A stretch of 63,231 nucleotides of DNA, the filler included, from Kipferlia bialata (Eukaryota): assembly GCA_003568945.1 (NCBI GenBank). It is 3 parts of 3 records of this genome, joined end to end, with 100 filler letters (N's around TTAATTAATTAA, not from the genome) between each part and the next. Parts side by side here need not be neighbours in the genome. Positions count along the whole stretch, not along the records: positions 20,496 to 46,668 come from BDIP01000196.1; 2 more parts are not named here. One strand, 5' to 3'. The translations under genes and the position numbers were made by a program. Under the pieces are notes generated by a model that had not been told where the DNA came from, searched no databases, and saw only the letters and a list, made by a program, of their open reading frames with translations. Positions 2,648-63,174 of the stretch are shown piece by piece; positions within the stretch are counted from its first letter, which is position 1, and each line of letters starts with the position of its first letter.

Positions 2648-5600
2648 GCTCAGAGAAATCCCACTCTATTTTTGGTTTATCATGTATACACGCCCCATAC
2701 CGACCCTGGCTATGCTCTCTTTCTCTCTCTCTCTTATACACTTACCCCATAGGCTATGTCGTAGTGTTGAGTCCACATCTGCCCCCCAGGCCATACCCAG
2801 GTTCACCTCTACATGTTCAATCACCTACACTATGTACCTAACAATCACCGATGCATTCCTATAGACCCCACTTGTATGTGTATGTATATGCCAGACACCT
2901 TCACTGCCCGTGTGTGCTGCCCTCCCCCTGAATCATATCCAGATATGTACTCATATATACTTATGCTCTTCAATCACCTACACTGTGTTCTCTTCTATTC
3001 TGATACCAACCAGCACACCAGACGATACCCATATATGTACCCTATAGTACATCGCCTACCCCCCCCTTACCTGACCCCAGGGCAAGACCGATACACACTT
3101 ATATGTATTAACTATCTCAGGTATTAATATCGTCCTTGTTCACCACCTTCCCATGTGTATCTGACCCCAGGCTGTCTGCCCCCAGGGCTAGACTGGGGCC
3201 ACCCCCACTGGACGCAAGGTATGTGTGTGTGTATATGCCAGCTGATAATGCCTTTATCCCTGATGATATACCCCCACTGGAGTCAAGGTATGTATATGCA
3301 AGTGGAACCTATATACCCCTGCTATAGGGCCCCCCTAACCCACCAGACTGCCTTGGGACAGAGTGTGTGCAGTATCAGTACATATATTACACCTCTCACT
3401 GGCAGACTACCTGGTGAGACTGACTGTGTGCAGGCCATAGCGCAGGGACACATGGCGCCCACCCCTCTACTACCACCGGCACTGCTCACGGCACAGGTAT
3501 ATGTATATGATATATACTATATATATACTATATATATATATTGAGTATGCAGTGAATGTAGTGTACCCACACCCTTACTACCACCGGCACTGCTCACAGC
3601 ACAGGTATATACTTATACACACACATATATATGTATACTATATATATACTATATGACTATGTGGAGTATATAGTATAACCACACCCTTACTACCACCGGC
3701 ACTGCTCACAGCACAGGTGTGTGTGTATGTATATAAGGATCAATCTTTGGGATATGTTGTGTCTAGTGTACCCACTCTGGCCTACCCATTTCCTATTTGT
3801 ATCCTAACCCCGAGGACGCCCCTGCCAGGGTATGAGTATATATGTATCTGTACGATTATATTATATATATCATTTATATACATGTATATACATGCTAACC
3901 CCCAGGACGCCCCTGCCAGGGGAAAGGGTGCACGGCAGGTGGTAGTGGGGGCTAGCAGGTACATATATAACAGCGGTGTATATATATATGAATATATATA
4001 TATCTCAATATCACTATTAGTGTATATGCAGGTGGTGGTGGGGGCTAGTTGGTTCTGGGTTCTGGTACATATATATGTGTGTGGGAATGCATATGTAGGT
4101 CGGGGGATAGGGCTAGTAGGTACAGGGCTAGGAGTATATACATCTGGCGCTTGTGAGGTACCTGTCATTGGTATCATGTCTCACCCATAGGAACTTGAAG
4201 GCATTTAGAAAGGCCGCTTTGGCCGAGCATCCACTTACGGATTGGCAGGTGGGGGATCAGTGGCAGTCACTTCTCTCTGTGGATGTGAACCGTAGTTCTC
4301 TCTGTCTCTATGGATAGCATCCTTACCCTTCAGTCCATCGAGCACCTGAACCCCAGTCCCCGTCTCCATCTCCATCTCTCTCTCTATTCTATACATATTC
4401 TAACTCTAGTCTCTCTCACCATATATATATAGATGTGTGTGTGTGTATATATGTTTATATATATCTACGGATAACATACTTACCCCCAGTCCATCTAGCA
4501 CATGAACCTCCGACCAGCTCTCTCTCTTTTCTCTATACTCTACATATTCTCACCCTTCAGTCTATCGAGCATCTGAACCTGAGTCACCAGGACCTGGGCG
4601 ATGCATACCAGGCCACATACCTGCAGCACATACTAGGTGGGTATATAGTGTATATATGTGACGGTGAGAGATAAAGAATCGTTTATGGGCTACTGCACCG
4701 GTATGTCTAGTATATGTATATATATGTATGCATGTGTGTCTGACCCCAGGTGTGCAGTGCCAGCCCAAGACGGCACCCCAGCTACTCAGCATAGACCTAG
4801 GGCATAACAGGTGGGATGTGTATGTGTGTATATATGCAGAGTATAACATGTACCAAGGATAGGCTCTGTGTCCAAGATAGTATGTTTGTATTCCACTACA
4901 GTATATATATATCGATACAATATTTATGCATGGTAATGACTTGAGACTATTCGCCCTAATCTCAGGATTGAGTCTCTGTCCAACATGTATCTGCCCCACA
5001 TCCAGAAGCTGTACATGCAGGGTGGGTATATCCTATATTACGTATATATCATATATAGTGTACATGTATAAATATACATATATACTTGTATCTGCCCCAC
5101 ATCCAGAAGCTGTACATACAGGGTGGGTGCACATGGATACAATAGTATGTATATTTGTAAATATAGTTATGTGTGTGTGATTGAATGTCTAGTCCTTCTC
5201 TCTCACTCCCTCACTCTCTCTCACTCACTCCCGATATATATGTATCCCAACCCAGGCAAAAACAGACTTGAGTCTTTCTCTCTGCTCCTCTCTCTCTGTA
5301 TATCAGTACATGCATATATATATATACTTACCCCTTAGGCAACAGCCTCGAGTCCTTCAAGGCCCTGCCCCTCTGTCCCAGACTGGAGGTGCTTTCCATA
5401 GACAGTAACCAGGTACATAGTAGTATATTCTGTATATACTCTTACCACACATATTCTTCATCCAGACAGACAGCTTCCAGGGAAATACTTCGTATAGGGT
5501 GACAGAGGGAGTATATGTACCCCGATCTCTCTCTCCCTTGTCTCTTACCCCTAGATAGAGACCCTGCAGGGTCTAGAGCGCTTCCCCCTCCTCAGAGTGC

Positions 5601-6277
5601 TGAGTGTCAGGGACAACCCAGTGGCCACATCTTTCAGATTCCTAGAGAGGTATGCATTATGCATTCATATTTGTATGGGTGTGGGTGTGTGTGTTGATAA
5701 CAGTCATATATATATATATATTTATATGGGTGTGATTATATGTGCGTGTATCCATATCCTCACCCCATTGGTGTGTCGTGATGTGTCCTGTCCTTGCATG
5801 CATTTGTATATAAATATTTATATATGAATGCAAATATATGTGTATTAGAGAGGTATCAACCTATATTAACCCCAGGTGTGTAGTGATGTGCCCTGTCCTT
5901 GATGTATGCAATGGCATACCCTGTCAGGCACTGCAGCAGGCAGCAAATGCACACGCCATACTCAGGAAACTCAACCCTAGGTATACAGTTTATAGTGTAT
6001 AGTATATAGTATATGTATAATGTGCGTGTTGGTCTCTCACCCTAGACGCCTTGCCTCCCGCATGGCCCAGATGAGTTTGACCAACAAGGACCTGTTGACC
6101 GAGGAAGACATAGGGAAGGAGGGGAAGAGTAAGAGGAGAGGGAGGGGGAGAGAGGCTGATATTGAGAGGGGTGAGGGTACCAGACACGTCCAGATTGATA
6201 ATAGGGAGGTGGATGTAGGGGAGAGAGCGGGGGAGAGAGAGAGAGGAGGGGAGGGTGGAGACTGGGGGGAAGGGTGA
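2648..6277 (+). CDS. Leucine-rich repeat protein (SDS22-like LRRs plus LRR cap), multi-exon; 5' start uncertain
   Basis: Spliced exons read in frame: SIEHLNLSHQDL (4561), LLSIDLGHNR, IESLSNMYLPHIQKLYMQG, NSLESFKALPLCPRLEVLSIDSNQ, IETLQGLERFPLLRVLSVRDNPV, then a basic/acidic tail to the stop at 6277. These match the LxxLxLxxNxI consensus. Confidence 0.75.
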
Positions 6278-8533: not shown

Positions 8534-8564
<31 letters not shown>

Positions 8565-9351: not shown

Positions 9352-9633
9352 CTGGTGTAAGTGAGAGAGAGATAATGGGGGGGGGGGGGACGGGAGGGGG
9401 GGGGGGGGGGGGGGAGGGGGGGAGGTGGGGGGGGGGGGGGGGGGGGGGGGGGAGATATACATATCACCATATATGTAGGGGAGGGGGTATGTGACATCCA
9501 TACTCACTTTGCCCTGTAGTACCCTGCCTCCATCAGCACTAACACATACTTGTATCAAATATATACCATGTACATGCACTCTTATATACATAGATACATA
9601 CAGTATATATTCATATATAGTATATACACTCAC

Positions 9634-10382
9634 TTTGCCCTGTAGTACCCTGCCTCCATCAGCACCTCCACAATGCGGTCATAGGCTGCAGCCTGGAGAG
9701 TTAGGTATATAGCCAAGAGATAGCAAGATCCATATATAGTGTGCGGTCACAGGCTGCAGCCTAAAGAGTTAGATATATAACCAAGAGATAGAAATATCCA
9801 TATAGGGTAGTGTGCGGACATATGCTGCGGCCTGTGGGGTGAGTCAGGGAGTAATACACAGTTATGTAACTAAGCGCAGAGTATGTATATAGCGATGTAT
9901 ACCTCTCTGGAGTCGAAGCAGTCCCTGCCTCTCCGGTCAGGACGGTCAGTCAGGTCAAACCCTGGGGTGAAGGGAAGGTGTATGATAGTGGTGTGTGAAA
10001 GGAGCGGGGTTGGGGGAGGGGGGGGGGGTAACTACAACACGTCCAATCATAGTCAATGATACAACTGCAACATACGGAATAGAATGGGACATAAAACAAA
10101 ACACATACATGAACAACACTCCCACGGGATAACCACCTTAACACTTAATTGTGAGTAACGAGTGTGTATGCACTGACCATAATCAACCAAAACGAGGTAC
10201 CCACTCGTGAAGTGAAGGAATACACTATATACCCAGTTACTCATACAGTAGAGTGGAAGCATACACATCTAACACACTCTAACACACACTCTAACACACA
10301 CATACACACTATGTACCTGGTGGGAGGGGTCGGGGCATCCTAGAGACCAGTCTATGGAGAGTGGGGCACAGTCAGTCTGCAT
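9634..10382 (-). CDS. 5' fragment of a probable CCDC93-like (Commander/CCC complex) gene
   Basis: Exon 9692-9634 reads AAAYDRIVEVLMEAGYYRAK, resembling the CCDC93 N-terminal motif (ILELLVAAGYFRAR, recalled, not searched). Upstream exons lie at ~9961-9903 and 10382-10317. No downstream exons before the poly-G junction. Confidence 0.5.
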
Positions 10383-20395: not shown

Positions 20396-20495
20396 NNNNN
20401 NNNNNNNNNNNNNNNNNNNNNNNNNNNNNNNNNNNNNNNTTAATTAATTAANNNNNNNNNNNNNNNNNNNNNNNNNNNNNNNNNNNNNNNNNNNN
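20396..20495. other. Artificial scaffold-joining linker
   Basis: Exactly 44 N + TTAATTAATTAA (stops in all six frames) + 44 N. Confidence 0.95.
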
Positions 20496-21258: not shown

Positions 21259-22139
21259 TCAGCACTCACCTTGATTGGGCAGGTCACTGTTTCCTCCGTC
21301 TATTACATACGCTTCTGTCTCCCCTTCTATATTGCAGGCACTGGGTGGTGCACAGTCTATCGATGGACTGGCGGGTACTGCATCTGCCCCACCCGTGGTA
21401 TCCTCTTCCGGTTCCTCACAGTCAGGCTGTCTGAGTGGCAGGATGACTGGGTAAGTGTTGGTGACTGTTTGCATGAAGCAGTATCACTGCCACTGACTGC
21501 AGTGCTGCCTTGGCCATATGTTGGATTGTAACCCAGGATCAATACTAGGCCTAGTATCAGTACAGTAGTGCACTTGTCTCACCTTTCCAGTAGATAATGG
21601 GTGCTGCTGGGATAAGAAAGAACATTTGTACCCCCAACAGGACCTTGTACCAACCTGGGCGTTAGGAGGAGTTGATGTTCTTGAATACTTGAACAGAGGT
21701 ATACACACTGTATGTCATGATTCCCATGTCGCACTGTACTCACCCCATATGCACATACTCCTCCTTTGACTCTCAGTGGCAGCCGATACCTCACTCTGAG
21801 GTAAGACAACGATATGAGTGGAGCATACTAGTAATGACTCCAGTACAAACTGAGTACTGGGACACACCTGGTCACAGGTGGACTGGGCCCTATCCTCTAC
21901 AACCCACACCTTGGCAGTGGTACCTGGTATAAGGAACGCACAGACACACGCACAGAGGAAAGAGTCCTGAGCAGATGATACATGAACCCTAACGTATGTG
22001 CAAGAGAGATACCAACCTACTGAGAATTGGCTACAGTAGTTGGTGTGCTTCTCATAGTTGCCAGAGGAGCTACCACTCAGCATAGAGGCCCCATAATACC
22101 ATCCACTGGGTAAGAGAGAGGGGGGGGGAGAGAGGGGGA

Positions 22140-22177
<38 letters not shown>

Positions 22178-22790
22178 TCACTCTGTGTTGGACATACACA
22201 CATCACACCGGTATGTGTATGTTGTTTTCTCCCTCCCCTCCTCGGTCTGTGTAGTGGACTCATAAGTGGTGAGGCCCTGGGGGTAGGAGGTATGCGCCTA
22301 CCTAGCATACACACTGTCCAACAACACATAGACCCACATACACAGGTGTTGACCCCAGTGAGTATGTATAGGCGGGCAGACAAAACTCGATATTGTATTA
22401 GAATTACTCATTCCCTATAGACTGTATGTATATTGAGATTGTTCCAAGCCGAGAAAGGAAACAGAAGAAAGTGAGGATGGGAGGAAGGGTGAGGAGAAGA
22501 GAGAGAAGGATACCTTGCTTCTGACACTGACAAGAGCAGGGGTGGAGGTCAGACCTGGGGTGAGTATGTGTCAAATGGGGAGGAGGGAGAAGGAGAGGGA
22601 AAGAGAGAGTCACACACAGCATGGGGTGGGGAGGATAAGAGGAAGATACTCATTCGATATCTCAATATATCTACTCATTAATGCATCTAGAAACTACTCA
22701 CAAATGTTGCAACTGGTGAGTCCACCGGAGAGTGCCCACCAGCCAAAGTAGCCTAGCATAACTGCGGCAATGATAGCTGGGGTGACTGGA
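21259..22790 (-). CDS. Fragment of a multi-exon putative membrane protein
   Basis: Exons such as VTPAIIAAVMLGYFGWWALSGGLTSCNI (hydrophobic) and GWYYGASMLSGSSSGNYEKHTNYCSQFS have canonical splice signals. Full phase was not resolved and the 5' side ends at a gap. Confidence 0.4.
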
Positions 22791-23004
22791 GAGAAGTGGG
22801 GGGGGGGGGGGGGGGAAAGAAAAAAAAAAAAAAAGAGAANNNNNNNNNNNNNNNNNNNNNNNNNNNNGGTGTGTGGTGGGGGGGGGGTGGGGGGGGGGGG
22901 GGGGGGGGAGTAGACATTTAAAATATACAAGTATATATAGATAGGTATATATACACTATACACTATAATATATTAATGTGTCATTCATAGAGATCAATGT
23001 ACGC

Positions 23005-24308
23005 ACCAGCATAGTGGCACACTTGGCCAAGTCCACCCCCTTGCCCTTGTCTGTCATATAGGTATACTACTAATACTTATATATATAGTATATCTACTCA
23101 CCAGCACAGTGGCACACACTTGGCCGGGTCCACCCCCTTGTCTGTCTTTAGGGTGAATGCACGCATGGCTGTCTGGAGCTGGGTGCGCAGGACTAGGGTT
23201 AGAACATTGGTGGGAGCATCAGTAAGTGACAAATATCACACAAATTATACATGTATATATATCACGCATGGCTGTCTGGAGCTGGGTGCGCAGCACTATG
23301 AGTAAGATCTTATGTTGTAACATTATGGTAAGTGAAGAATTCAAAGAATAAATGCATAAAATATATATATCACGCATGGCTGTCTGGGCCTGGGTGCGCA
23401 GGACTAGAGGTAAGAAGGGTTGAGAGACTCACTCTATTTACACATACATAGTATTATATCTGTATTGGAATAGCGTACACATATGTGTGTATGTTTGTAT
23501 GTATGTACTGTACCTGAGTGTAGTGTTGCGTATCTGGTGACCTCTGCCCTGAGGGTAGCAACATAGGCACGCAGGGTGTCTGATATAAGCAATAGTATAT
23601 ATATATATATACATAGTTACAAACATGTATATTCATATGCCTTTAGGGTAGCGACATAGGCACACAGGGTGTCTGGAGTGAGAGCATTCATGATCATCAA
23701 GAGAGAGAGAATGAGAGGAAGGTGGGGGAGCTGCAAATATGTGTACTAAAAATTTCGTATTGCGGATATTGGATATATATAGAGAGAGAGAGAGAGAGAG
23801 ATGTGATACCTGCACTTGCTGGATCCAGGCCTGGGTGCAGAGGGGGCTTGCCCTCGACCTGGGGTCAGAAGGGATATATACTGATGTGGCAGTAGATAGT
23901 ACTAAGATAGATAATACAGGGGGGGCTTGCCCTCGACCTGGGGTCAGATGTGGATATATTAACTATTCTAAATATTTCAGAACCTGAGCATATGTTGCGG
24001 CACAGAAATATATATATATGTATATTCTAGATATTCATATATATATATTATACATTCATTATATATTCAGTACCTGTGCATCTGTTGCGGCACAGACCAG
24101 TGCTCTGTCACAGTGGCCTGGAGGTGAGGGTGTAGAAAGAGAGAGAGAGAGAGAGAGGGAGTGACAATAACAAATTTAGTATTAAAGAGACCAAATATAA
24201 AGCATAATTACCTGCCACTGTCTCGAATGCCGTGTCTGCGCTGAGGCATATCTCAGTCAGGGTGGGTCTGGGGTTGGATATATATACATATATACACATA
24301 TATATATA

Positions 24309-24372
<64 letters not shown>

Positions 24373-25925
24373 ATGTGTGCGTGTGTGAATGACACGCAAA
24401 AGATACACAATTACATATACACACCTGTCACTGTGTCCTCCCATCTCAAGGACACATCCCAGCCACAGGAATGCAGAGAGCAGGGGCTTGGTCTGGGATC
24501 AGAATATAGGGGAGAGAGAGAGAGAGAGAGAGAGACGGAAAAGCCAAAAGATAACAATATACCTCCTTGGCCAGCTTGTGCACTACTTGATGACAATGTA
24601 TAGTATACACTGAATATAAGTATATATTTTGATATATATGCAATACCTCCTTGACCTCCTTGGGTAGCTTCTGCACAATACGGGGGGCATAGGCCTGTCA
24701 TGAGAGGGCTGCCGAAGACGAGAGAGAGACAGAGAGAGAGAGACGTGAAAGTGAGAGAGAGCGAAGAGGGAAGGGGGAAGTCGGTGGGACATACGGGAAG
24801 GGGGGGGGGGAGAGAGAGATATGAATACATACTATGTACCTTACACAATTGCCACGCCACTCCGACACTTGGCAGTCCCCTCCTGTACGCAGAGTCGGGC
24901 ATGGCACTTCTGGCCAGATCAGTCAGGGCATGGTAGGCACCTAAAGGGTAAGATATATATATACATATATACATAGAGAGAGAGAGAGAGAGAGCGGTAA
25001 GGGCATGGTAGGCACCAGAGATAAGATATAAACATATATAGAGAGAGAGAGAAAGAGAGAGCGGTCAGGGCATGGTAGGCACCTAAAGGGTAAGAGGGGG
25101 GGAGAGAGAGAGAGAGAGAGATATCAAATAATCTCAAGGCCCTGGAGGCACCAAAGGATAGGAGGATGGGGGGGGGGCTCATAAGGAAGGGGGGGGTGGG
25201 GGGGGGGGGGGGGGGGATAAACTGTGGGGGATGGACAGATCCGTGTACACGAGTATATATAATTGCATCAGTGAAGACAGAGTACGGCAAGAGTATTAGA
25301 TATATCTGAGATTGATCAGACAGCAACACAGTGAATAGAGCAAATGAAACTGAAACAGGAGCAGGAGAGAAATACCTGGCACGTACATGTGTATACTCCA
25401 CTTGAGGTACATTGGGGGGGGTATGCATATACTACTAGTATACATATAACATAGTATTGACAAAATCAGAGTGGATTGAGCACCCACCTTGAGATGCCTC
25501 CTCGCCCTGCTGGATGCGTTCCGCCCTATATCTTTCACTACCGCACCCATACCGGCACATGCCAGCTGCACCTTGACATCCATGAATGACCCCCCTCTCA
25601 CTGCAATGTCCATATCTGACTGGGGCGAGGCATACACAGTGCCCCAACTGCCGTATATCACAGGGTCCAGTCCCCCTTCCTCTAGACACTCCCACACAGC
25701 ACTGTGGAAGGGGTGGGCCTTGGGCAGGCGCTGCGTGGTATGTGTCCTCCCTATAGTACTGGCTGTGATGTCTGACAGAGGGAGTGTGTGGTAGACAGGC
25801 AGTAGCACCTCCTCCACACACCCAGTGTGTGTCTCTGTGCACTCAGCTGCATGCTCTGCATAGTGCACCCACTCAGTGAACAGGGTGCCACAGGGGCACT
25901 GGAACTCAGGAGTGCACCCTGGCAT
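23005..25925 (-). CDS. Pol-beta superfamily nucleotidyltransferase (non-canonical poly(A)/TUTase-like) with an N-terminal Zn-finger-like motif
   Basis: Exon 25925-25488 has CPCG...HAAEC and IYGSWGTVYASPQSDMDIAV (hG[GS]x9DhD signature). Small downstream exons (RRGLPSVGVAWQLCK, PLHPGLDPASA) are consistent with a PAP-associated region. 3' end uncertain. Confidence 0.7.
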
Positions 25926-31449: not shown

Positions 31450-32459
31450 ATGGGTGGTGTAATCGGTAGGATTGCACATGCTGTCGGCACTGGAGGTGCA
31501 ACCTTCGCCACAAGCAGGGGGGTGACGAGAGACACCGCGATCGAGATCAGGCGGAGGGCCCTGAAGAGGCTGTGTGGTCAGGTGCAGGCCAAGATCGACG
31601 CTCTCAAGGACGAGTGGGAGGCTGATCACCCTGGTGAGGACATGACTGCTGATGAGGAGGAGGCCATCCGCAGCACTGCCCTCGACACCCTGCTTGTGGC
31701 TGCCGATTCAGTGCTCCGCAAGGCCGAGCGCAAAGAGACCCTGTGGGGCAAGATTAGCAGGTATGATTATAGTGTATACACTTACTGTAGACTAGCCATG
31801 ACTACAAGTTGTAGTCTACAACTTAATGGGGTACATGGTGTATTGCCACATAGTTGGTGTGTATCCGACATTTGTCGGTAATGGTGGTGTGTGGAGGTGG
31901 TCGGCTCAGATAAGCCAACCACTATGTTTTGTTGAATTCATATACATGTGTACTAATCTACTCGTGTAACTTGCTAGGCTATGTTTAGTAGTTAATGACT
32001 CTGGCAGATTATCTTGAGGTCACCTACACCAGGTTCTTCAAGCAGGTCACACACTACGGCACTGACCGCCTATCGGAGCTCCGCCAGCACTACGAGGCGA
32101 TTGTGCGCGAGGTTCAAAACACTGACCTCGCCCCAGAGACCCTGCTTGACGACCAGCTGGCTCTGACCAACACAGTGGAAGCGGCCTACGCTAGACCACC
32201 ACCTGTCGTCACGGAGGAGAGGGCTCCCGGAGTCGGTTTCTGGGACAGTGTGAGGGTGTTCTTCGAGACCGGCTTCGAGTGGGTGAGAGACAACCTCAGC
32301 CCTGCTGCTATTGCCGGATCCCTCACCATAGCTTCCATGGCCCTCCCTTACCCTGCTAACTACGTGGCCAGTGGGGCTGCTGTAGCACTCTCCCTCGTCA
32401 CTACAATCAGGTGCATGCTCTGGGGGCCACTTGACGAGGAGTGTGCCGAGACTCAGTAG
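31450..32459 (+). CDS. Hypothetical helical protein with N-terminal MG and a C-terminal hydrophobic hairpin
   Basis: Two strongly GC3-biased coding blocks (31450-31760 and ~32008-32459). The direct splice is out of phase, so a microexon or different splice site is needed. Confidence 0.6.
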
Positions 32460-32780
32460 AGACTCAGAAGGGAAGGGAAGAGAGGGTGGAGAGAGGGTGT
32501 GGAGTAGAGTGACAACTTAATAGAGCGACATATTTTTCACATTTACATGCTCGCCTAAAGACCTTCTATTGCGAGAGAACATATACATTCGAGAACATAT
32601 ACATTCGAGTAACATTGGGACATGGTACTTGACCATAGGTCGTCTATGGGTCGTCTATCCGCATGATGTTGCAGTCCCCCTCTAGTTCCACAAGGAATGG
32701 GCTAGCCAGTTATATATATACGTACAAATACAACTATACATATATGGTCATTCACCCACAAGAAGTACTTGACAGACTGT

Positions 32781-35700
32781 CTATTCGTCGTCTATCCGCA
32801 TAATGTTGCAGTCCCCCTCCAGCTCCTCCACAAGAGAGGGGTCAGCGAGGAAGCCCCAGTTGGTGAAGTCGCCTGGATATCAGAATACACACGCATAGAT
32901 ATACATATAGATATATAGAGAGAGAGAAAGGGTCAGCAAGGAAGCCCCAGTTGGTGAATTCTCCTAGAGATTAAGAGAGAGGAGAGAGACATAGAGAGAG
33001 AGAGAGAGAGAGAGAGAAAGGGTCAGCAAGGAAGCCCCAGTTGGTGAAGTCACCTGGGGATCAGTACCCATATATTCATATATATACTGTCAGTATAGAT
33101 AGAGAGAAAGAAACCCTGTACCTGGCACCCTGTTCTTGGCCGATGCCCGTGTGTATATATATGTATCAACAGTGGATACATACTAATACTCTGTATACAT
33201 CTAAATATATATCTATGTACACAATCTACACACCTGGCACCCTGTTCTTGGCCGATGCCCGTGTGTCTATATAGTCAGTGTATATCACTATATCCTATAT
33301 ATGTAGTATATACAGTTTATACACACACATATATATATATCAAATATCATATACCTGGCACTCTGTTCTTGGCCGATGCCCGAGTGTATGTCTGGACAAA
33401 GTGGGGCATCCTAGTGATAAGCATTATCATTGGTACATCAAGTATATATACATATGTATATATATATCTCATCCAGCTTAAGGCACCTGCTTATGGGCCT
33501 TGCCATTGTGGGTATGGTATACATACTAATCTATGCATTAATCCATAGTTCATGTATACCCATGTATACATGTATACCAATACACACACACCTGCTTACG
33601 GGCCTTGCCATTGTGGGTATCAGTTACATGTGTTGTGTGTGTGTATAGTCTGTATTTGGTATATATATGCACTATATATTTTATACCTATACTATACTAC
33701 TATACCTGCTTATGGGCCTCGCCATGGTGTGTGGGTATAGTTCACATATATACTATGACACAGCTCTATATATGCATATATATATATATATATGTATGTA
33801 TGTAATATATTGCATACCTGCTTATGGGCCTTGCCATGGTGGGTATCAGGACACACAGGGGGTGCTCATAGACCCAGCTGGGTATGAGATAATAAGAATG
33901 TAAACATACTATGATATACTTCTATATATATATAGGAGAGACAGAGGGAGAGAAGAAGAATATACAGGGGGTGCTTGTAGACCCACCTAGAGTCAGAATC
34001 ATTTGAATAGCCTGGAGAGCAGAGCCTGCGTGCGAAATGATGTATACACCACACACCTTCCAATAGTCTGCAGTTCCTTCCATGTCGACACCATATAGAC
34101 TAGGGGTGTATCTATCTATATATTTGTCTGTCTATATATGCAAATAGAAAGAGAGTATACCACGCACCTTCCAATAGTCTGCAGTTCCTTCCATGTCGAC
34201 AGGATGAATCTCCTGTCCGTTGCATTCTTGCCACCACCACCGGGTAGGAGCTGAGCTAGGACCTAGACGTGAGGTGTTACTACCATATACAACATACATC
34301 ATACCATGCCAAGGAGTCTTCCACAAATATGACTTGACCAGATCAGGCACTCGTCTAACTATCTCTCTCTCAATTCCCCTCCATATCAAATACTGTGTGT
34401 CCATGATTTGAACGGAAATACCCCAACCTCCTTAGTCTGCCACAAGGTAAGTTCTTACACTTAATACTATGATGTGAGTATGCAAAGAGAGAACCTTTCC
34501 CCTTGTCTGAACTGCAAGGTCTGGTACCTTCCGGCTCTTGCACTCTCTCTCATATATGTATATACATATGTATGTATGTGTACATACAGCACATATACAC
34601 TCAAACAAACCTTCCCCCTTGTCTGCACCACTAAGTCTGGCACCTTCTGGCTCTTGTACTCTCTCTCTCTCTCTCTCAATATATATATATATGAATGTAT
34701 ATGTGTGTATGTATGTCCCTACCTTTCCTCTTGTCTGTACCACCAGATCAGGCACCTTCTGGCTCTTGTACTCAGGTTGGAACAGACCCACACCCTTGGA
34801 CTCGTAGTGGTGCAGGATCAGACCACGCAGGAAGATCCTAAGGGTAAGCAACGTACACAAACACACACTATAAAAGTGTGTAAGTAGTACCTTGTTGTGT
34901 CTGGTATCTCAAAGGTGTGGATGCCAGAGCAACATATCAAAAATTGTACATATACATATAGTCATAAAGCAGCAGCCAAAAGACATATACTATGTATGTA
35001 CAAGCGCACTTGTATATGCATATATATACCTCGTTGTGTCTGGTATCTCAAAGGTGTGGATGCCGGGGCTGCCTGGCACAGTTACCTCAACCTCGGGCTG
35101 GGGTTAGTATATAGCTTATACTATAAACATAGTGGTATACCACCTCGGGCTGGGGTAAGCATGTATTGATATAGTACATAGGATATATTCGCATATATAT
35201 ACATATATCGGCCTGTCTGGCACAGTCACCTCCACCTCGGGCTGGGGTCAGAATATGTATACGTATATATAATAGCACATTAGTATAGACATGTACTAAT
35301 CCCCACAACAGAATCCATTCACACTGATGTATATTCGCGGCCACGGAATGCAAGTATGAATATGCAATACTATTGAGAGGGAGAGAAATACTGTACCTCC
35401 GAGAACTGCCTCAGGTACTTCTGGGGCTTGGGGATGACAGGGGGGCGTACTCCTGAGAGTGAGTCATGCCACGATAGCAGTAGTGATATTTATATATATT
35501 CACAGCAGTGATATATTTATCTTTATTTATACATATCTATCTATGAATGACAGGGGGGCGCACTCCTGAGAGTGAGTTGATATACATATACAAGTACAAG
35601 ACTCAAGTGTCTCGTATATACGTGGGAATATAACCCATGTACCTGTCGCTTCATACATGCCACAGACCAGTACAGCGGTAGGATATAAGTATATATAGAA

Positions 35701-36114
35701 CATCCATATATACATGCACCCATATATAGAAGTACTACCTGTCAGCTTGAGGCATGCCTCCGACAGACCAGTGATGTTACAGAGAGACTCAATGCCCTGG
35801 GGTGAGAGAGAGAGGGAGAGAGGGAGAATTGAACAATATACAATTCACTCAAAGTATCTAGTTACTAAAGTATACCTGCCACAGCACATAGCAGCTCTTC
35901 ATGTGCTCTATGAGGGTGGGTCTGTCCAGGGAATATCCATATATATATCCATACACATATACTATACTATTAATACTATACTCTATACACTATATACTCT
36001 ACCTGCCACAGGACATAGCAGCTCTTCATGTGCTCTATGAGGGTGGGTCTATCTAGGGCATCCAGCTCGAAGATGGACACGAATGAACTAGACGAGACAC
36101 TAAGGGTGAGACGA

Positions 36115-36152
<38 letters not shown>

Positions 36153-36217
36153 TGTCAAGGGCATCCAGCTCAAAGATGGACACGAACGAACTAGAGGAGA
36201 TACTATGGGTGAGATGA

Positions 36218-36265
<48 letters not shown>

Positions 36266-36550
36266 GAGAGACAGATATGTCAAGGGTATCCAGCTCAAAG
36301 ATGGATACGAAAGAGTTGAGGTACTGGGAATTAGGGATGTAGAGTGAGAGAGGATAAACACATATACACTGCACTATACATGCATACACACCTCTTCCCC
36401 TTGATGCTGTCTGTCATGGGTGTCTCTGTCACTCATATCCCCTCTCTATCTCTCTCTCTATATATATAATAACATATACACTATACACTACATGTACCTC
36501 TTCCCCTTGATGCTGTATTTCATGGGTGTCTCCGTGACCTCAGGCTCAGA

Positions 36551-36583
<33 letters not shown>

Positions 36584-38882
36584 CATACTACACATTGTAT
36601 ACGTACCTCTTCCCCTTGATACTGTCTGTCATGGGTGTCTCAGTCGCTCATACTCTCTCTCTCTCTCTCTATATATATATACATATCTATGTCTATACCT
36701 CTTCCCCTTGATGCTGTCTGTCATGGGTGTCTCTGTCACCTCAGGCTCAGACCCTTCCTCACTGCTAGAGGCAGAGGGAGAGGGAGAGGGAGAGGGGGAG
36801 ACGGACCTAAGGTAAGAGGAAGTATTATGCATATACATACTTAGTGGAGAGAGAGATAGACCCCTCCTCACGAATACAGATATACACTATGTACCCATAG
36901 ATATAAGAGAGAGTATACTCACCTATCCAGCTGCATCCCTGATGACTCAGACTCACTGTTGCTCGATGACTCAGACTCAGATCTGGCCGTGACACTCTTC
37001 CTGGAGACCCTGTGAGGTAAGATATGGATGCAACATTGACAATACACGTATCTTTGAATACCCCAAGGCCATGATATCCTTCCTAGACACGCTAGTGGTA
37101 AGAGGTACCCATAATTATCCACTAGTATTGACATCAGATTATGTCTCTGTATATATGTACCTAGCCCTTGTTGTTCTCTTGGCAGAGGGGGAGTATATAT
37201 CCATATGTACATAGTATACTAATACTACATACATATATATATACATACATATATATGTGTGTATATATGCATTACTGTACCTAGCCCTGGCTGTCCTCTT
37301 GGCAGGGGGTGCAGAGGAGGGGGTGCCCTGGGGGTGAGTAATTTGTATATATATGTATATATAAATAGAGAGAGAGAGAGAGAGAAAGATGGAGAGAGAA
37401 ATTTTGAATGGAGGGGTGCAGAGGAGGGGGGCCCTGGGGGGTGAGAGAGTGTGAGAGAGAAATAGGAAGAGGGAGAGAGAGGGAGAGTGCAGAGGAGAGA
37501 GAAAGGGGGACACAACGTATGTGTATATGTACTGTATATGTACCCACCTTGCGTGATGCCGCCTTCCCAGTTGACCTTGGGGTGGAGGCAGGGGACGAAT
37601 AGGGGTCCTAAGGGTGAGATATTGTGACAATATATATATATATGTATAGAGAGAGAGAAAGAAAGAGAATAGGGTGTGAAGGGGTGGAGGCAGGGGAGGC
37701 ATAGGGGTCCTGGGGATTAGAACAGGTCAAATACTATTGATACAAACATTTGATGTATATACATGTACATATGGAGGCAGGGGATGTATAGGGGTCCTCA
37801 GGGTGAGGGAGACATACAAAAATATATGTGGTGTACATTCAGATATGACGGGTATATATATATATGAATGAACATCATTGAGAAAGCTGCGGCAAAAGAT
37901 AGAGAAAATGATCTCCATACCTCCTTGACCGCCCTTGTGTAGCTCCTCCTCCTCTCCTTAGGCTGGCCCTCACCCTGGAACCTCACGCTGGGGGTTAGTA
38001 TATATACCATGTTATAATATATAGTGTAGTGGTATCTATGCATATGGATTTCTATACCGATATAATCAATAGTAACTCATGACGTATACCAATTGTTGCA
38101 GATGACACTGGAACAAGGTGCATAGATACACTGTATATAGTGTGACACTTAAGAGCGCTGGTAACAATCTCAGCAACATGTCACATACCGTGGGAGTCGT
38201 GTTGTGAGTGACGCCAGCTCTAACGGGTACTTGGTCTCGGTGCACTGATTGTAAGAGGTGTAGAGAAAAAGAAGGAAAGAAAACGATATGAATGCATGGT
38301 TATACCTGAAAGATCGATGGAGATGAATAGAGAGAGAGAACTAGGAACAGATAAGCTACTGTATATAAATGTGTGTATATATACATCCATACCTGGAACA
38401 GTGCTGACAGGAGGCCATCCCTCATACGGGCATCGAGGTAGGGGTGGCACCTGGGGGTGGGAGGTATATGTGCATCGGTAACATATATATCAGTGGTATA
38501 TCCTATACTATACTAAAACATACACTGAATATACTAGAACTCGAATCCATCAATTATTACACTATACACATACATACCTCAGCAGCATCGAGTGCACCTG
38601 GTGGTACGACTCCACCTGTCTCTACATACTATACACACTATATATACTATACACACTATGTATATACCATATACTATATATACTACACATACTCACCTCA
38701 GCAGCATTGAGTGCACCTGGTGGTACGACTCCACCTGGGGGGAATCCATGCCTGAGACTGCTTTGACTGGCTGCAGTCTGGGGATCAGAACTATCTACTA
38801 TGAATATATAACTATATATATATACTACTATGTATACTGGGCATCCATCCCAGACACGGCCTTGACGGGCTGAAGCCTGAGG

Positions 38883-38913
<31 letters not shown>

Positions 38914-40180
38914 TCTCAATCCCAGAGACTGCCTTGACGGGCTGTAGTCTAGGGTAAGGATAAAACCAAAGGCAATTGCAAGGAACAGGGAGAGTCCGAA
39001 CGAGTTGCCTCCCGAGTGGTACGATCGACTAATACTACACTGGTCCCTCAACCCTACACCCACAGCTGGTCACACACTATCGGATCTATACACTGATGCA
39101 TACTATATACCTACTGCTAATGGCCGGGTTGTCACTCATGATGAGGTCTGTCAATGTTGAACAATAAGGTCTATACTATATATATACTGTATGCAACATA
39201 AGTATATATATGTATATACAAGTACTATACTATGCATCTACCTACTGCTAATTGCTGGGTTGTCACTCATGATGAGGTCTGTCAATGTTGACCTCTTATA
39301 GTGTATATATACATATATATACACTATATGTTATATAAATTGTTATGCTATGTGCATCTACCTGCTAGATATAGCCGGGTTGTCACTCATGATGAGGTCT
39401 GTGAGGGTTGACCTCTTATACTGTATATACATATACTATATGTAATACAAATAGCTATGCTATATGCATCTACCTACTGCTAATGGCCGGGTTGTCACTC
39501 ATGATGAGGTCTGTCAGTGTTGACCTATAGTATTCTAAATACAAGCCTGTGTACAGAACTACTAGCCATATACATATACATATATATATCCTAGATACCT
39601 GCTAGATATGGCCGGGTTGTCACTCATGATGAGGTCTGTCAGTGTTGACCTATAATATTCTAAATACAAGCCTATGTACACAACTACTAGCCATGTACAT
39701 ATACATATATATATCCTAGATACCTACTAGATATGGCCGGGTTGTCACTCATGATGAGGTCTGTCAGTGTTGACCTCTGCCCTGCCGTCCAGGCATTGCC
39801 AAAGGGTCTGATCAGGGACAGAATGGCTGCAGCGGCATCCTGAATATAAGACACATTAGTAATAAAACAATATAATACTAAATGAGGGGATAGAGATGAG
39901 AAGGGGAGGGGATTGCCAAAGGGTCTAATGAGGGACAGGATGGCTGCTGCAGCGTCCTGATAATAAGGGTGTAGAGGGAGAGAGAGAGAGAGAGAGAGAG
40001 AATTGCCAAAGGCTCTGATCAGTGACAGGATAGCTGCAGCGGCATCCTGACAATTGGGTACGTATAATCTAGTGTGCAAACTAACGAGGGGAGAGAGATG
40101 AGAAGGGTAGGGGGATTGCCAATGGCTGCAGCGACATCCTGAGAATAAGGAGGTATACAAAGAGAGAACAAGAGTATAGG

Positions 40181-40211
<31 letters not shown>

Positions 40212-40347
40212 TCGCATTGCCAAAGGGCAGGATAGAGGCTCAGCATCCTGGGAATGCGGTGACGTGGGAGAGAGAAAAAAGTAAGCAAAGGGAGAGTAGT
40301 GGCAAAGACTTCAGAAAGAGATCTGATAGCAGCAGTGACAGTCCTAC
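32781..40347 (-). CDS. Large multi-exon hypothetical protein (many small exons), 5' truncated at a gap
   Basis: Exons include DAAAAILSLIRPFGNAW...NPAISSR, SFVSIFELDALDRPTLIEHMKSCYVLWQ, FQPEYKSQKVPDLVVQTRGK, EIHPVDMEGTADYWK and a terminal GDFTNWGFLADP...MRIDDE* (stop 32781). No family recognised. Confidence 0.65.
39110..39775 (-). repeat. Array of six exon-end plus GT donor copies (51-nt coding core, ~120-nt period)
   Basis: gggttgtcactcatgatgaggtctgt occurs six times, separated by divergent TA-rich spacers. Confidence 0.95.
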
Positions 40348-40592
40348 TAGCAGAGAGAGAGAGAGTCATACAGTGAGATAGACAGGTCATAGGGGGTGGG
40401 GGGGGGGGGGGGGGGGGGGGGGGTGAAAACAAAAAAAAAGAGANNNNNNNNNNNNNNNNNNNNNNNNNNNNNNNNNNNNNNNNNNNNNNNNNNNNNNNNN
40501 NNNNNNNNNNNNNNNNNNNNNNNNNNNNNNNNNNAGAGAGGGGGGGTGGGGGGGGGGGGGGGGGGGGGGGGGGGGAAGGATACTATACTAAC

Positions 40593-40973
40593 CTGACTTT
40601 GGCTGCAGCCACTGGTACTCATAGCCCCCTGTTGCATGGGTAGGGCAGATGTAGGTGTCAGGTTCCAGTCCAAAGCTGAGTGTCAGAGATATATCACGCG
40701 ACTAGTCAGGGAGGCAGTGCCTCCCGGAGGCACTCGAGAGAGAGACCCACATACATCTGTGCACACACAGAACCTGGAAATACAAATCCTGGTAACATAA
40801 TATCATGCTGTCAGAAAACCATGATGTCGCGTTGTAGTGTCGAAATGGATTTAGAGTGTACTAATGTAGGGCCAAACCAGCTACCTTACATCAGCGTTGG
40901 GGCACGAGAAGGTCGATGCACTAGCAGCGAACAAGCCTAATAGCACCAGGTATATGCATACCCAGTGACGCAT
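40593..40973 (-). CDS. 5' fragment of a secreted Cys-containing protein
   Basis: MRHWVCIYLVLLGLFAASASTFSCPNADV (signal-peptide-like), a probable microexon FCVCTD, and exon FGLEPDTYICPTHATGGYEYQW; ends at poly-G/gap. Confidence 0.5.
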
Positions 40974-41287
40974 CTGAGACAGAGAGGCTACTGTGCACAA
41001 GAGACTCGAGTCAGTTGAGCATATGCGTAATTTTTGGGTTGCCCCCCTTTTAGTTTTCTTTACTACTCAGAACAAGACAGTCGCTCGTTCCACCGTCTAT
41101 GGTACTTAACCAGGGAGGGCGGCTAGTCACAGCCGTTTATATCATTCATATATCAAGTTGCTTTGCGTAGGAATCCGTATTTGGACCCTTCTTTCCAGCA
41201 GAGACTGTCGCGCAGTGAGAAGCAAAGGTTTGACCCGTGAAGTCATATCCTCGGAGGCAGCGCAACTAGGCAGGATATGTGGAGTGC

Positions 41288-41332
41288 GTGGTTTCTAGCC
41301 ACTGAGCAATGAAAGGTCTAGCTCCACGCTAC
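41288..41332 (-). repeat. Dispersed ~40-45 bp repeat, copy 2
   Basis: + strand gtggtttctagccactgagcaatgaaaggtctagctcc. Confidence 0.75.
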
Positions 41333-42028
41333 AATATGTGAGAGTCCGATTTCGGCTAGTAGAGATAGCCTAGCACTGTCACTGTCAAGGAGCTTTCCGA
41401 TTGAGGAGATGAGGTCTCTTCATCATGAAGTGGAGTAACACATACATCGTCCATGATAAGGAAGCCGAGCCAATAGGCCATTTTGCCTACAAGCAACACC
41501 CCATTCACACCTCAATATATGAATACATCTCAAGTATTATTCTTGGCTTGATAGCCGCCCATGACATCGATTCTCAGTCTCGTGTACGGTCGCCGGTGAG
41601 TGACTGGCGACCTGCTGTCCCATCATGTAAGAACATGATTCATGCTCTATGCAAGAGACTCTACGACGCCAACAGCTCTTCGATAAGATTGTAATATACA
41701 ACAAAAATGCATATATATACCATTTGAACACATGGACTGCCAGTTCCCTGAGCTATCGGTGGTATATCGAGTATAAGTCAGTCTACTATTACAGGCAACG
41801 TCTACTAACACCTTGTGACTGAACGAAAAACAGAAATGCAAAATGAAGAGGTCTCTTATAGAGACCCTGTCCTACTGACGTAACGTGAACAGTATTTCGG
41901 CTCTATTCCTATCAGAGATATACTGCAATGAGTATGATCAGATAGACTACTCTATTAGTTCCCATTGGTCAGCCAATACCATGCAAATTCAAGTGCTCCA
42001 CAGAATGTAACACTATGTCAGTGGGGTC

Positions 42029-46668: not shown

Positions 46669-46768
46669 NNNNNNNNNNNNNNNNNNNNNNNNNNNNNNNN
46701 NNNNNNNNNNNNTTAATTAATTAANNNNNNNNNNNNNNNNNNNNNNNNNNNNNNNNNNNNNNNNNNNN
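46669..46768. other. Artificial scaffold-joining linker
   Basis: 44 N + TTAATTAATTAA + 44 N. Confidence 0.95.
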
Positions 46769-48678: not shown

Positions 48679-51600
48679 TCAAGAATAGAACTCTCTGATC
48701 TCGGTAGTCTTGGTAGTTGCAGTCCCATCCAGTACTAACCAGGTTTCGACGATCCTAGCCCCCCCGTGTATCACTGTGAATGTGTATGTCCCTGACCCAG
48801 ATGGTGTAGACGCCGTGGTACAGTTGTAGGTATCACCCACAGCGTCATAGGCACATGCAGCATCGACCCCTCCCCAGTGCACAGTCACACTCTCTGACGG
48901 GTAGGAAGCGTCCCCGCACACGCCGTGTAGGTACACTGTATGTTGTGACATGTCTGCACTCTCATGGTGTACAGAGGTCAGGGACGGGTGGGGTTTAGGG
49001 TCACCGGCAACAACGATGCTCACTCCAATGGCTACCTCCCCACAGTCTCTGGCATATACGGTACCAGAGTATGTCTCTGCGGCACAAGGGGCTGTGAGTG
49101 GCACAGAGTATGTGCCAGTCGATGCATAGTACACCGCGTCGTACTCGTGACCGTCCAGGCTCAAGTAGAGGTCAAATACCCCTGTGACTGGTCTGCCGTC
49201 TTGTGACAAGAGGTTACCAACAGCTAGGCGAACACTCTCGCCTGGTCTATATGTCACTGTCCAGTCTGGGGTATCCGTAGTCGCTGGCATGAGTCTGGGT
49301 CCATATACAGCCACTCCCTGGCCGTCTATCTGTCCCTCAACCCGTACATGCAGGTATACACCATCCCCACTCACACTGTGCGCATAGGTGGACGGGGCGT
49401 TGGGGTGGATGGGGTAGAGAGACCCATTGCCATCCAGGTTCTGACCCATCAGGGCCACCCTCCCACTGTTACTGCCATAGCGGTCGTCAGTAGCGTCTAC
49501 AGAGTACACCTGGCCCCCCATTATGACAGCCCCTGTCTCTGTAGTGGGTACCCCGGCCTTGGAGTGCACCTCTGTGCCAGTTGCCAGGGTGGCAGAGTCT
49601 ATAGAGACCTCAGAGAGGGTGTGGGTATCATCCGTGCCAGCATGGGAACGCATCAGGAGTCTTGTCGGTGTCACCTCATCGATGTACCACATGTCAGACC
49701 TGAGTTGGATAAATCATTGAGCAGATGACATAGAACACCCATCAGAACCAGGCGAAACCAATCTGAATCTCTTGCCAAAGATCCTTACAACACTCACCCG
49801 TAGTCGTAGGAGTCACTTGTACCAACGTCTATGCCGCCATCCGTGAAACTGACCCTGTGCACTGCTGATGAGCCAGAGGCCTAAGGTTAGAATATGGTGT
49901 ATATATATATATATATCATCAGACATATATAAATCTATATCATTAGAGGCCTGAGGTTAGAATATGATGTATATTTATGTATATGATCAGAGACATAAGG
50001 GTCAGAATATGAAATCTACATATCACCACATATATATATATATATATCATCCGAGGCCTAAGGTCAGCATATGGTATATATACACTGACGGTCAATCATG
50101 AACAGAATATATCATCAGAGGCCAAAGGGTCAGGCAGGATCAGTGTCAGTAGTAGTAGTAGTAGTAGTAGTGTGGTTTCTGACCACTGAGCAATGAAAGG
50201 CCTAGCTCTTTGCGCACAGTAGTAGTCAGAATACCCTGTCACACAAGTGTAGAATACATTGGCTGAGGACCTTGAGAAGAAATGGAAGAAACTTGAAAGA
50301 ACCCATACCAAGGTATATGCCAGAATCTCCCCGTCCAGCGCTGCGTCGTGGATATTGGAGAACTCTCCGTCCAATGCCCAAATACCACCACTGTACCGTC
50401 TAAACACGACCAGCTTCTGACCAAGTCCCGACTCACCGACCAACACACCTACTCTGGTGTCAGAAGAAGCATATGAGATTGGGAGTTTGGAGTAGAGAAA
50501 GACAAACACACCTGTCACCCCAGCCTATCACGCCTCTGGATCCTAGACCCTGTGCGTCGATGTCGAGGCTGATGACACACTCCACCCGCCATACCCCAGA
50601 GTCCATGTCACGCTGCAGTATGTGGATCTCTCCCTTGCCAGACCTGGCTGCCGGTGCCACAGCTGCCACTGTCCAAGGTGAGAGCGCGGCAGTCGCAGTC
50701 ACACCCGCCACATCAAGCGTCTGACTAAGCGCGTAGAACTCAGTCACCGAGTCGTGCTCGAAGAGAGAGACAGAGCTTGAGGATGGGGTCCCAATGACAC
50801 GCAGGCCGGCACTCCCTCTTATATCGGAGGCAGGGGTGCCAACCTCTGAGGTACTACACGATGGCCCGTAAAAGCCACAGAGGTGCAGCCCACTCTGGAC
50901 AAGTGAGGCGCTAGTGACAGTCCCGTACTGTGAGGTGCCCAGCACCCTGTTGTTGACACGTACGGTCAATGTGAACACACCAGGTGGAGTCATGATTTGA
51001 CACACATACAGACTGTCGGTGTCTCTAAACACACACGGAGAGGTGGGGCTCTCATCGCTGTAGCTGACACCTACCGAGAGGCCACATCCGACATTGTCCC
51101 CACCAGCAGTATACACAGCGACTGTGTACACCCCCAAAGAGAGAGGCACAATGGAGGAAGGGGGAGTGACGGTAACAGTCGCTGGGGCGGCAGAGGGCAC
51201 GAAGAGCCGGACCTCTCTACTGTCCTTCGAGCCAACTGTGACAGCAAACCCAGCAGAGACTGAGACCTCGGAGAGGCCGCTCCCCTTGGTCCCGTACCAC
51301 TGGTGGGTCATCGCGTAGGAAGTGCCGTCCTCAGAGGCAGTGTGTAGCACAGCACCCCCGTTCCCAGAGGTGTACTCACTGTGACCGAACCCTGCTTTAG
51401 AAGGCACGCCAACCAGCAGCTGCCCCCCGGAGAGCGATACTGAATGTCCAAACTCTTCACCGTACGCGAGTGGCGAACCACACTCCGCGAGACTGGACTT
51501 GGACTGATCCTGGTGAGTGTAGGTAGTCCCAATCAGCCCATAGCGGTATACCCTGCCAGGGCTCACGTCACCCTGGGAGGCCCCTATAACCAGAGTCCCA

Positions 51601-62900: not shown

Positions 62901-63174
62901 CTGAGAGTCAATATATATATATATTATATGTGTTTCAATATGTGTGGAGCATGTATTAGTTATATACAACAGCAATGGTGTCGCCAATCCCAACACAACA
63001 CATCTGACTGATGGGGGTGGGGGGACACATATACAAACACACACATATGTATATGTATATATATGCTTATACTCACATGAAGCTCCACAGACAAGAGCTG
63101 AATATATCTGTGAAAGGAGACTGAGGTTATCTACTGCTAGACTGTCTCCATCCAGGGTGTGACCGAGACCAACA

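Follow-up and report, generated by a model that had tools for sequence, protein, structure and literature searches.

Half-exon copies in the introns of Kipferlia bialata genes: an excess of silent changes and a possible origin in diverged haplotypes

Why should an intron carry copy after copy of the end of its neighboring exon, and why should these copies differ from the exon only at silent sites? This question is raised by an array at 39110-39775 in a stretch of DNA (assembly GCA_003568945.1) of the free-living flagellate Kipferlia bialata; the stretch has 63,231 nucleotides, filler included, and we call it the window. On the minus strand, six copies of one exon end start at 39773, 39648, 39523, 39411, 39291 and 39160. 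The first is the end of the live exon and the other five, which we call echoes, lie in the downstream intron (Table 1). An earlier note on this DNA had claimed that the six copies differ only at synonymous sites. This holds: all six encode the identical 16 residues, followed by AG|GT, no variant changes a residue, and every codon variant that had been listed is present. The exon bounds given then (39838-39725, with 51 nt shared) have to be corrected to 39839-39724 (116 nt), with 50 nt plus GT shared. The exon is part of KIPB_001397, a hypothetical protein of 473 residues from K. bialata (100% match). Pfam returned a single match to this protein, below the cut-off, and an atlas search gave leads only, without a family. 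An Rfam scan of 38000-41000 gave no matches at the gathering score.

The array contains nine distinct codon changes, all nine silent, and for each of them at least one echo retains the live codon. Seven are single-base changes; the rest is the change from ATA-TCT to ATT-AGC, a serine switch that can be read as four substitutions (one 4-base event) or as a compensated 3-base shift. That seven of seven single-base changes should be silent has a probability of 4e-5 to 2e-4 under neutrality; with selection on the live copy alone (half of the path protected) it is 1e-3 to 4e-3. The array was itself chosen for its cleanness. The spacers had been described as heavily diverged, which is true of most pairs; between spacers 1 and 2, however, 68 of 72 bases agree, and the opening 49 bases of spacers 3 and 4 are alike at 42 positions. 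As noted earlier, an internal AG|GT places an AG in front of four of the five echoes. The array is also a mosaic. The C/T site in codon 16 and donor position +5 occur in all four combinations, a pattern that a recurrent C/T change could produce as well, and there are three states at two codons and three types of donor flank.

Table 1. Coordinates of the genes, live exons and echoes discussed in the text
Feature	Position	Strand	Remarks
Gene X (KIPB_001397, P0001)	32781..39839	-	18 exons examined, 38 echoes; true first exon(s) not placed in the window
Gene Y (KIPB_001394, P0002; flagged low quality by source)	21583..24940	-	15 exons examined, 9 echoes
Gene R (KIPB_001490, P0004; precomputed Pfam PF12799/PF13855)	3171..6277	+	11 exons examined, 12 echoes
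Live exon of gene X (array exon)	39724..39839	-	116 nt; last 50 nt = copy 1; RNA-type contig covers 39724-39841, 0 differences; 100% identity to KIPB_001397
GT-AG intron holding the array	38778..39723	-	946 nt; holds 5 end echoes of the array exon plus 2 start echoes of the exon after it; from RNA-type contig
Echo copy 2 of exon end, then GT	39599..39651	-	1 silent change; spacer resembles spacer 1 (68/72)
Echo copy 3	39474..39526	-	ATT-AGC form; second donor-flank type
Echo copy 4	39362..39416	-	4 silent changes; whole with both spacers on DNA contig 39262-39500, depth 476, 0 differences
Echo copy 5	39242..39296	-	5 silent codon changes
Echo copy 6	39111..39160	-	No preceding AG; third donor-flank type
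Four start echoes of the array exon, in upstream intron	39909..40246	-	39956-39909, 40046-40002, 40138-40121 and a degenerate one at 40246-40214
Next live exon downstream of the array intron	38697..38777	-	
Start echo of exon 38697-38777	38948-38916	-	5 silent, 1 replacement
Start echo of exon 38697-38777	38875-38839	-	7 silent, 1 replacement
End echo of exon 38697-38777	38618-38578	-	
Echo of coding-sequence end including stop codon, downstream of gene X	32644..32709	-	No splice donor involved

Is the array an isolated case? It is not: the same exon has four copies of its start upstream, and we find 59 half-exon copies at 27 of 44 exons in three genes (X, Y and R), which were chosen for their richness in echoes. 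The first signs of the wider pattern came from a self-comparison of the window and a tblastn search with KIPB_001397, in which copies appeared beside most exons of gene X. For the catalogue, we compared the DNA of each exon by alignment with the introns on either side, using thresholds taken from shuffled introns. This gave 62 matches, of which three were dropped (36262 and 36148, CT runs; 35490, weak). Gene Y is without an exact spliced parse, and its exons were set from tblastn and the nearest AG/GT; all nine of its echoes are at exons above the N gap at 22840.

The echoes are short (median 34 nt) and polar. Upstream echoes copy the exon start: in 27 of 29 the first base lies at most 5 nt from it, and none reaches the exon end. 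Downstream echoes are copies of exon ends in 29 of 30 cases, and none of the 59 covers a whole exon (>90% of it). A splice site is not needed for an echo, because one behind gene X copies the final coding bases together with the stop codon. Each echo adds approximately 102 nt to a base intron of approximately 122 nt, and by our arithmetic 51 echoes in 41 introns make up about half of 10.2 kb. With the echoes masked, 15 intron repeats are left; 11 of them are complex, 10 of these lying in introns that hold echoes, the corresponding number of complex echoes at that score being 46. Echoes are unevenly spread over the window, since the 4-kb bins at 12001, 28001 and 52001 contain 11-12 acceptor-like sites each and no repeat segment. 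The inner junctions adjoin a dinucleotide run in 26 of 59 echoes against a background of 29%, a count biased by the ends of the alignments. At 36392-36670, three end echoes start beside (GA)n runs similar to the purine-rich sequence of the exon at the break point, and several start echoes terminate in (CT)n runs; such runs at echo edges are possible microhomology.

Are the copies real? Two sequencing runs of one sample bear on this, X1 from DNA and X2 presumably from RNA. That X2 is RNA was a guess, which one contig of 803 nt supports: it aligns on seven stretches without a difference, and pieces that are neighbors in the record end in AG and GT. This contig carries the whole exon 39839-39724 joined straight to 38777 (consecutive record positions 491/490), which skips the five echoes, and it joins across three further echoes as well. 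Copy 1 is thus the working exon end and the echoes are intronic, skipped in the assembled transcript, rare splice forms being invisible in contigs. Among the X2 pieces listed none lies on an echo copy; rare forms are lost from contigs, and by itself this finding has no weight. The X1 contigs have even depth (428-480) and no differences, and at 37674-38873, 35035-35915 and 33237-33762 live exons and their echoes stand together on single contigs. Joints of DNA contigs at low-complexity TA runs were excluded from use. No other letters were found in the X1 DNA at 90% likeness, a result to be read with the fact that contigs drop variants. That the array is an artefact of assembly, with haplotypes or strains stitched in tandem, was one option of the earlier note. 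In its favor, all of these are short-read contigs, among the X1 pieces listed none spans the whole array, and X1 may be the assembly's own source and hence not independent. However, echo copy 4 with both of its unique spacers sits on one read-derived contig (Table 1), the three contigs named above hold echoes beside live exons, and a mixture of strains is not expected to yield such junctions at full depth. We consider an artefact extremely unlikely.

What would be expected of copies that are simply dead? The earlier note held that dead duplicates should gather mostly replacement changes, which is too lenient a null, because the live exon gathers silent changes as well. We used a stricter one, in which a dead copy is compared with a live exon that gathers silent changes only; the expected silent share is then 0.39-0.47, the range depending on transition bias (observed kappa approximately 2). 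This null is likewise rejected. Among the differences of the 59 echoes the silent share is 0.63-0.72, depending on which of three ways of trimming is used, and pN/pS is 0.13-0.26. When distinct events are counted once per array, there are 84 silent and 52 replacement changes (P <=5e-4 against the half-selected null), or 71 and 28 with 8 nt cut at the inner edge (P <=5e-7). Changes for which another echo has kept the live codon stand at 30:20, and at 24:10 with the inner edge trimmed, compared with a neutral silent share of 0.25-0.31. Simulated dead duplicates that were passed through the same aligner had a silent share of at most 0.52 in 200 replicates, compared with 0.76 observed when counted in the same way.

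The three genes contribute unequally to this result. There is a strong excess in gene X with or without the array (silent share 0.67-0.79; half-selected null rejected at P 1e-6 to 1e-11, the counts not being fully independent), a marginal one in gene R (0.64-0.67, P 0.04-0.09) and none in gene Y (9:9). The silent excess rests mainly on gene X. Per 16 codons we observe 2.20 silent and 0.90 replacement changes. The divergence of the echoes spans the range from none to high, some having 7 silent changes in 37 or 51 nt.

The splice signals of the echoes are preserved together with the protein sequence. GT is retained in 27 of 27 end echoes and AG in 22 of 27 start echoes, and the scores of these sites are not different from those of real sites (P 0.19 and 0.25). 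The intron beyond them is another matter. In the 40 intron bases beyond the echo, 6 of 54 comparisons exceed the 95th percentile of unrelated introns, 2 of 54 are clearly alike, and 52 of 54 score <=19. A dead duplicate simulated at the observed replacement level has a near-identical flank (median score 36 at d 0.03). Even where echo and exon agree throughout, over 31, 34 and 41 nt, the flanks are unrelated. Judged by their sequence, the echoes look like orthologues from diverged genomes: protein and splice signal are kept, silent sites are shifted and the intron is unalignable.

If the coding part of the echoes has been under selection for most of its history and is untranslated, as one RNA contig indicates, then the simplest source would be a sequence that recently worked in another copy of the genome. 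We therefore lean, with modest confidence, towards the view that the echoes are untranslated intronic tandem duplicates of exon edges whose coding part was captured, or is repeatedly refreshed, by recombination from working alleles of strongly diverged individuals. Against this view, no donor haplotype was seen. Our searches for a second strain or a relative found none: a metagenome scan gave 599 pattern matches, of which tblastn confirmed none, and a scan with a 23-base pattern gave no exact matches. The X1 contigs, which drop variants, showed no other letters either. Of the options in the earlier note, capture from diverged alleles would fit best, but not in its strict serial, one-sided form. 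That form predicts a gradient of age with distance from the exon, and there is none (pN 0.043, 0.049 and 0.010 for ranks 1, 2 and 3+), so that strict serial capture is disfavored.

It is tempting to propose a path in two steps. Between diverged genomes, recombination would be expected to pair at conserved exons alone. Where a break falls close to the edge of an exon, it may be repaired by invading a diverged homologue; synthesis would run from the exon into the non-homologous intron, and the strand would be rejoined by microhomology, so that the exon stays entire and gains a half copy. An echo could equally be seeded by plain tandem duplication. An existing echo may then mispair with the live exon end of other haplotypes, and unequal exchange and conversion would add or overwrite units, all from about the same start point. 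Each unit would bring a recently working spelling and splice site, while spacers without homology would drift. Exchange and conversion of this kind would account for the common start point, the mosaic of variants, near-identical neighbors beside unrelated ones and the absence of an age gradient. The polarity of the echoes does not discriminate, because any duplication that spans a junction yields it. The scheme requires a silent diversity among donors of approximately 0.2, an assumed value at the top of the known range, and refresh faster than coalescence.

We examined these requirements in a toy population model with N=100, a single 48-nt tract and 3-8 seeds, over 22 settings. In clonal runs the silent share was 0.19-0.41 without direct selection and 0.49-0.60 with direct selection on the echo. 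Runs with recombination yielded 0.29-0.43 at low diversity and 0.28-0.84 at theta 0.2, the share rising with refresh; at theta 0.2 and a refresh of 50 times the mutation rate there were 2.44 silent and 0.77 replacement codons per 16. Only frequent recombination between individuals at theta 0.2-0.3 came near the observed 2.2 and 0.9. Clonal conversion with second-order selection was rejected even at theta 1-2. The parameters were chosen and tuned by hand, and the model therefore speaks for consistency and is not a proof.

How do other explanations fare against the same data? The echoes might be ordinary dead duplicates of junctions, converted at most by their own live exon, the silent bias arising because the live copy alone is protected. 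Polarity and the lack of whole-exon copies are the expected residue of selection on random duplications, gene Y fits, gene R is only marginally off, and the array was itself selected for being clean. Yet this account is rejected for gene X with and without the array and for the distinct events of all genes (P 5e-7), simulated flanks stay near identical where the observed ones are unrelated, and clonal conversion in the toy model never rises above 0.41 silent. We regard it as quite improbable. Somewhat less improbable, though still unlikely, is that the echoes are sometimes translated, as alternative exon halves through AG|GT or by an unknown route at the RNA or DNA level, and are under direct selection. 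The AG before four of the five array copies is in register, and among 180 exact spliced parses four alternative pieces are array copies. Silent and replacement changes stand at 23:3 inside the parts usable through AG|GT and at 50:25 outside (Fisher P 0.04), and the inner boundary lies within 4 nt of AG|GT in 6 of 38 arrays compared with 2.6 expected. Direct selection also lifts the silent share in the clonal toy runs. The cleaner usable parts and the boundaries near AG|GT are a hint of some use of echoes. As a general cause, however, the cassette halves suggested in the earlier note fail: an in-register usable AG|GT is present in 11 of 59 echoes and absent from 48, the silent excess persists outside the usable parts (P 5e-4), and the acceptors of the array are poor. 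Its four AGs score -3.7 to -9.3, compared with a minimum of -0.2 among 44 real acceptors and a median of -5.0 for random intron AGs, and its internal donor is weak (2.5, the 5th percentile of real donors being 4.3). Moreover, the RNA-type contig bridges the whole array and three further echoes, one echo has a stop codon and several have indels, and no route is known for start echoes without a donor.

Another account agrees with capture from diverged sequence and differs in the donors, which would be one or a few past diverged copies of the genome, from a hybrid or polyploid phase or from lost paralogues, with the echoes as scars. It explains the silent excess and the unrelated flanks equally well, and both the echoes with 7 silent changes and the patchy density along the window agree with it. 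Against it, three states at two codons and three donor-flank types in one array imply more than two sources or later exchange, and echo divergence runs from none to high. In addition, no paralogue of the array exon was found among proteins of 89-2000 residues, which is weak evidence. We give it a small chance.

Recombination with diverged working alleles, as we propose it here, has known ingredients. One-sided invasion occurs in double-strand break repair, and in bacterial homology-facilitated illegitimate recombination one end is homologous and the other is joined without homology; both are known for transgene or transformation events and not as recurrent native arrays at exon edges. Such invasion predicts a whole exon plus a half copy, as seen here, but also the age gradient that the Kipferlia echoes lack. 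In mutually exclusive tandem exons each copy is a complete exon that has its own acceptor and donor and reaches mRNA. Neighboring copies differ mainly at silent sites in both cases; none of the 59 echoes, however, covers a whole exon. Dead repeats that span a junction likewise consist of units with an exon end and a decoy donor; unlike them, the exon part in Kipferlia is kept at the amino-acid level and most spacers are unrelated.

Intron gain by tandem genomic duplication at an AG|GT proto-splice site is described in the available parts of PMC3443670 and PMC2891723. The likeness lies in a short tandem duplication of coding sequence and in the AG|GT at the inner boundary of the array. In Kipferlia, by contrast, the duplication spans an existing splice site, the assembled mRNA has no new intron, the acceptors in the array are poor, and most echoes have no usable AG|GT. 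In that model the second copy reaches mRNA; here the contig uses the whole first exon, rare forms being invisible. The accessible part of PMC2891723 also looks for acceptor scores in the range of real ones, and those of the array lie below it. With these low scores and the weak internal donor, the proto-splice model does not apply to the array.

The regime that our explanation needs exists in nature. According to the portions of the reports available, crossovers between 14%-diverged parents of Schizophyllum commune favor exons (PMC4209137), and silent diversity in this species reaches 0.20 (PMC4576712). Recombination between strongly diverged genomes is anchored there in conserved exons, and the silent diversity is the one required. 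The crossovers of S. commune, however, are in register and were measured in a cross, whereas diversity and exchange in Kipferlia are deduced from one genome. The string "duplicat" does not occur in the main text of PMC4209137 as available. As far as the available text of PMC8516963 goes, metamonads are without Ku-dependent end joining, Rad51A has been lost in fornicates, which depend on Dmc1, and no observation of sex has been made in Metamonada. The part of its Supplementary Data 2 that we used lists K. bialata with Spo11, four Dmc1 entries, Hap2, Mlh1 and Pol theta, the cell for Ku70 being empty. "Duplicat," "ploidy" and "heterozyg" are absent from the available main text of the K. bialata genome paper (PMC5874029). 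Our literature search, incomplete in coverage and mostly without subscription papers, found no description of half-exon echoes. The ingredients are known; we did not find a description of their combination, that is, dense half-exon copies with protein and splice signals kept and flanks unrelated.

More tentatively, and as something we would call possible and not yet probable, repair against diverged partners may routinely leave fragments of functioning genes from other individuals at the edges of Kipferlia exons. In echo-rich genes, roughly half of the intron DNA would then amount to an archive of foreign alleles, and recombination would lengthen introns. If echoes carry the spellings of other haplotypes, they would record unseen sex in a group where gene inventories cannot prove it. 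Thousands of exon edges in one genome would record the divergence of partners and the frequency of exchange, so that sex, diversity and exchange rate might be read from a single genome. The echoes also offer a cause of intron lengthening (approximately 100 nt each on a base intron of 120 nt), and no such recombination-driven route turned up in our literature search. If, on the other hand, echoes are translated, a processing route not known so far would be implied. Many decoy donors and acceptors of full strength, at 70-130 nt from the true sites, are passed over by the Kipferlia spliceosome, a point of interest for splice-site pairing in an intron-rich metamonad.

Echoes can misguide gene prediction. 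The source model of KIPB_001394 (21043-25925, minus strand) appears to use an echo (approximately 23050-23007) as an exon, in another frame; it may also fuse more than one gene, and its first exon is 68% identical to KIPB_006546. At the upstream end of gene X, the RNA-type contig has 195 extra bases before exon 39839 that have no match in 32400-41600. The true upstream exon or exons may sit in the N gap at 40444-40534; the source's first exon of KIPB_001397 at 40637-40593 is unsupported by this contig. The DNA depth over 40684-41600 is 1091, compared with approximately 450 elsewhere, and this part is therefore repeated in the genome. Thirty-seven bases at 41288 recur at 50172. A 12-base TTAA-repeat palindrome with 44 N on each side occurs at 20440-20451 and at 46713-46724, and looks like a scaffold-joining linker and not genome sequence.

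Further echoes and echo-poor genes are seen elsewhere in the window. Pairs or groups of echoes in unannotated genes are found at 181-323, 49875-50130 and 60905-61057; at 49875-50130 it is chiefly the acceptor-side intron that is repeated, with approximately six exon bases. A long gene or group of genes on the minus strand (48679-63000), with repeated S/T/G-rich segments and long exons, is nearly free of echoes. A gene at 6600-9350 (minus strand) has, by Pfam, a [FeFe]-hydrogenase small-subunit domain fused to flavodoxin, FAD-binding and NAD-binding domains; it has few introns, and no echo was found in its long last exon. At 9500-9960, also on the minus strand, a 60-nt exon (9691-9632) has two start echoes and one identical end echo of 38 nt. 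The phase of this exon does not match that of the hydrogenase exon beyond the G run at 9377-9452, and this run may therefore hide a gap or a join of two genes.
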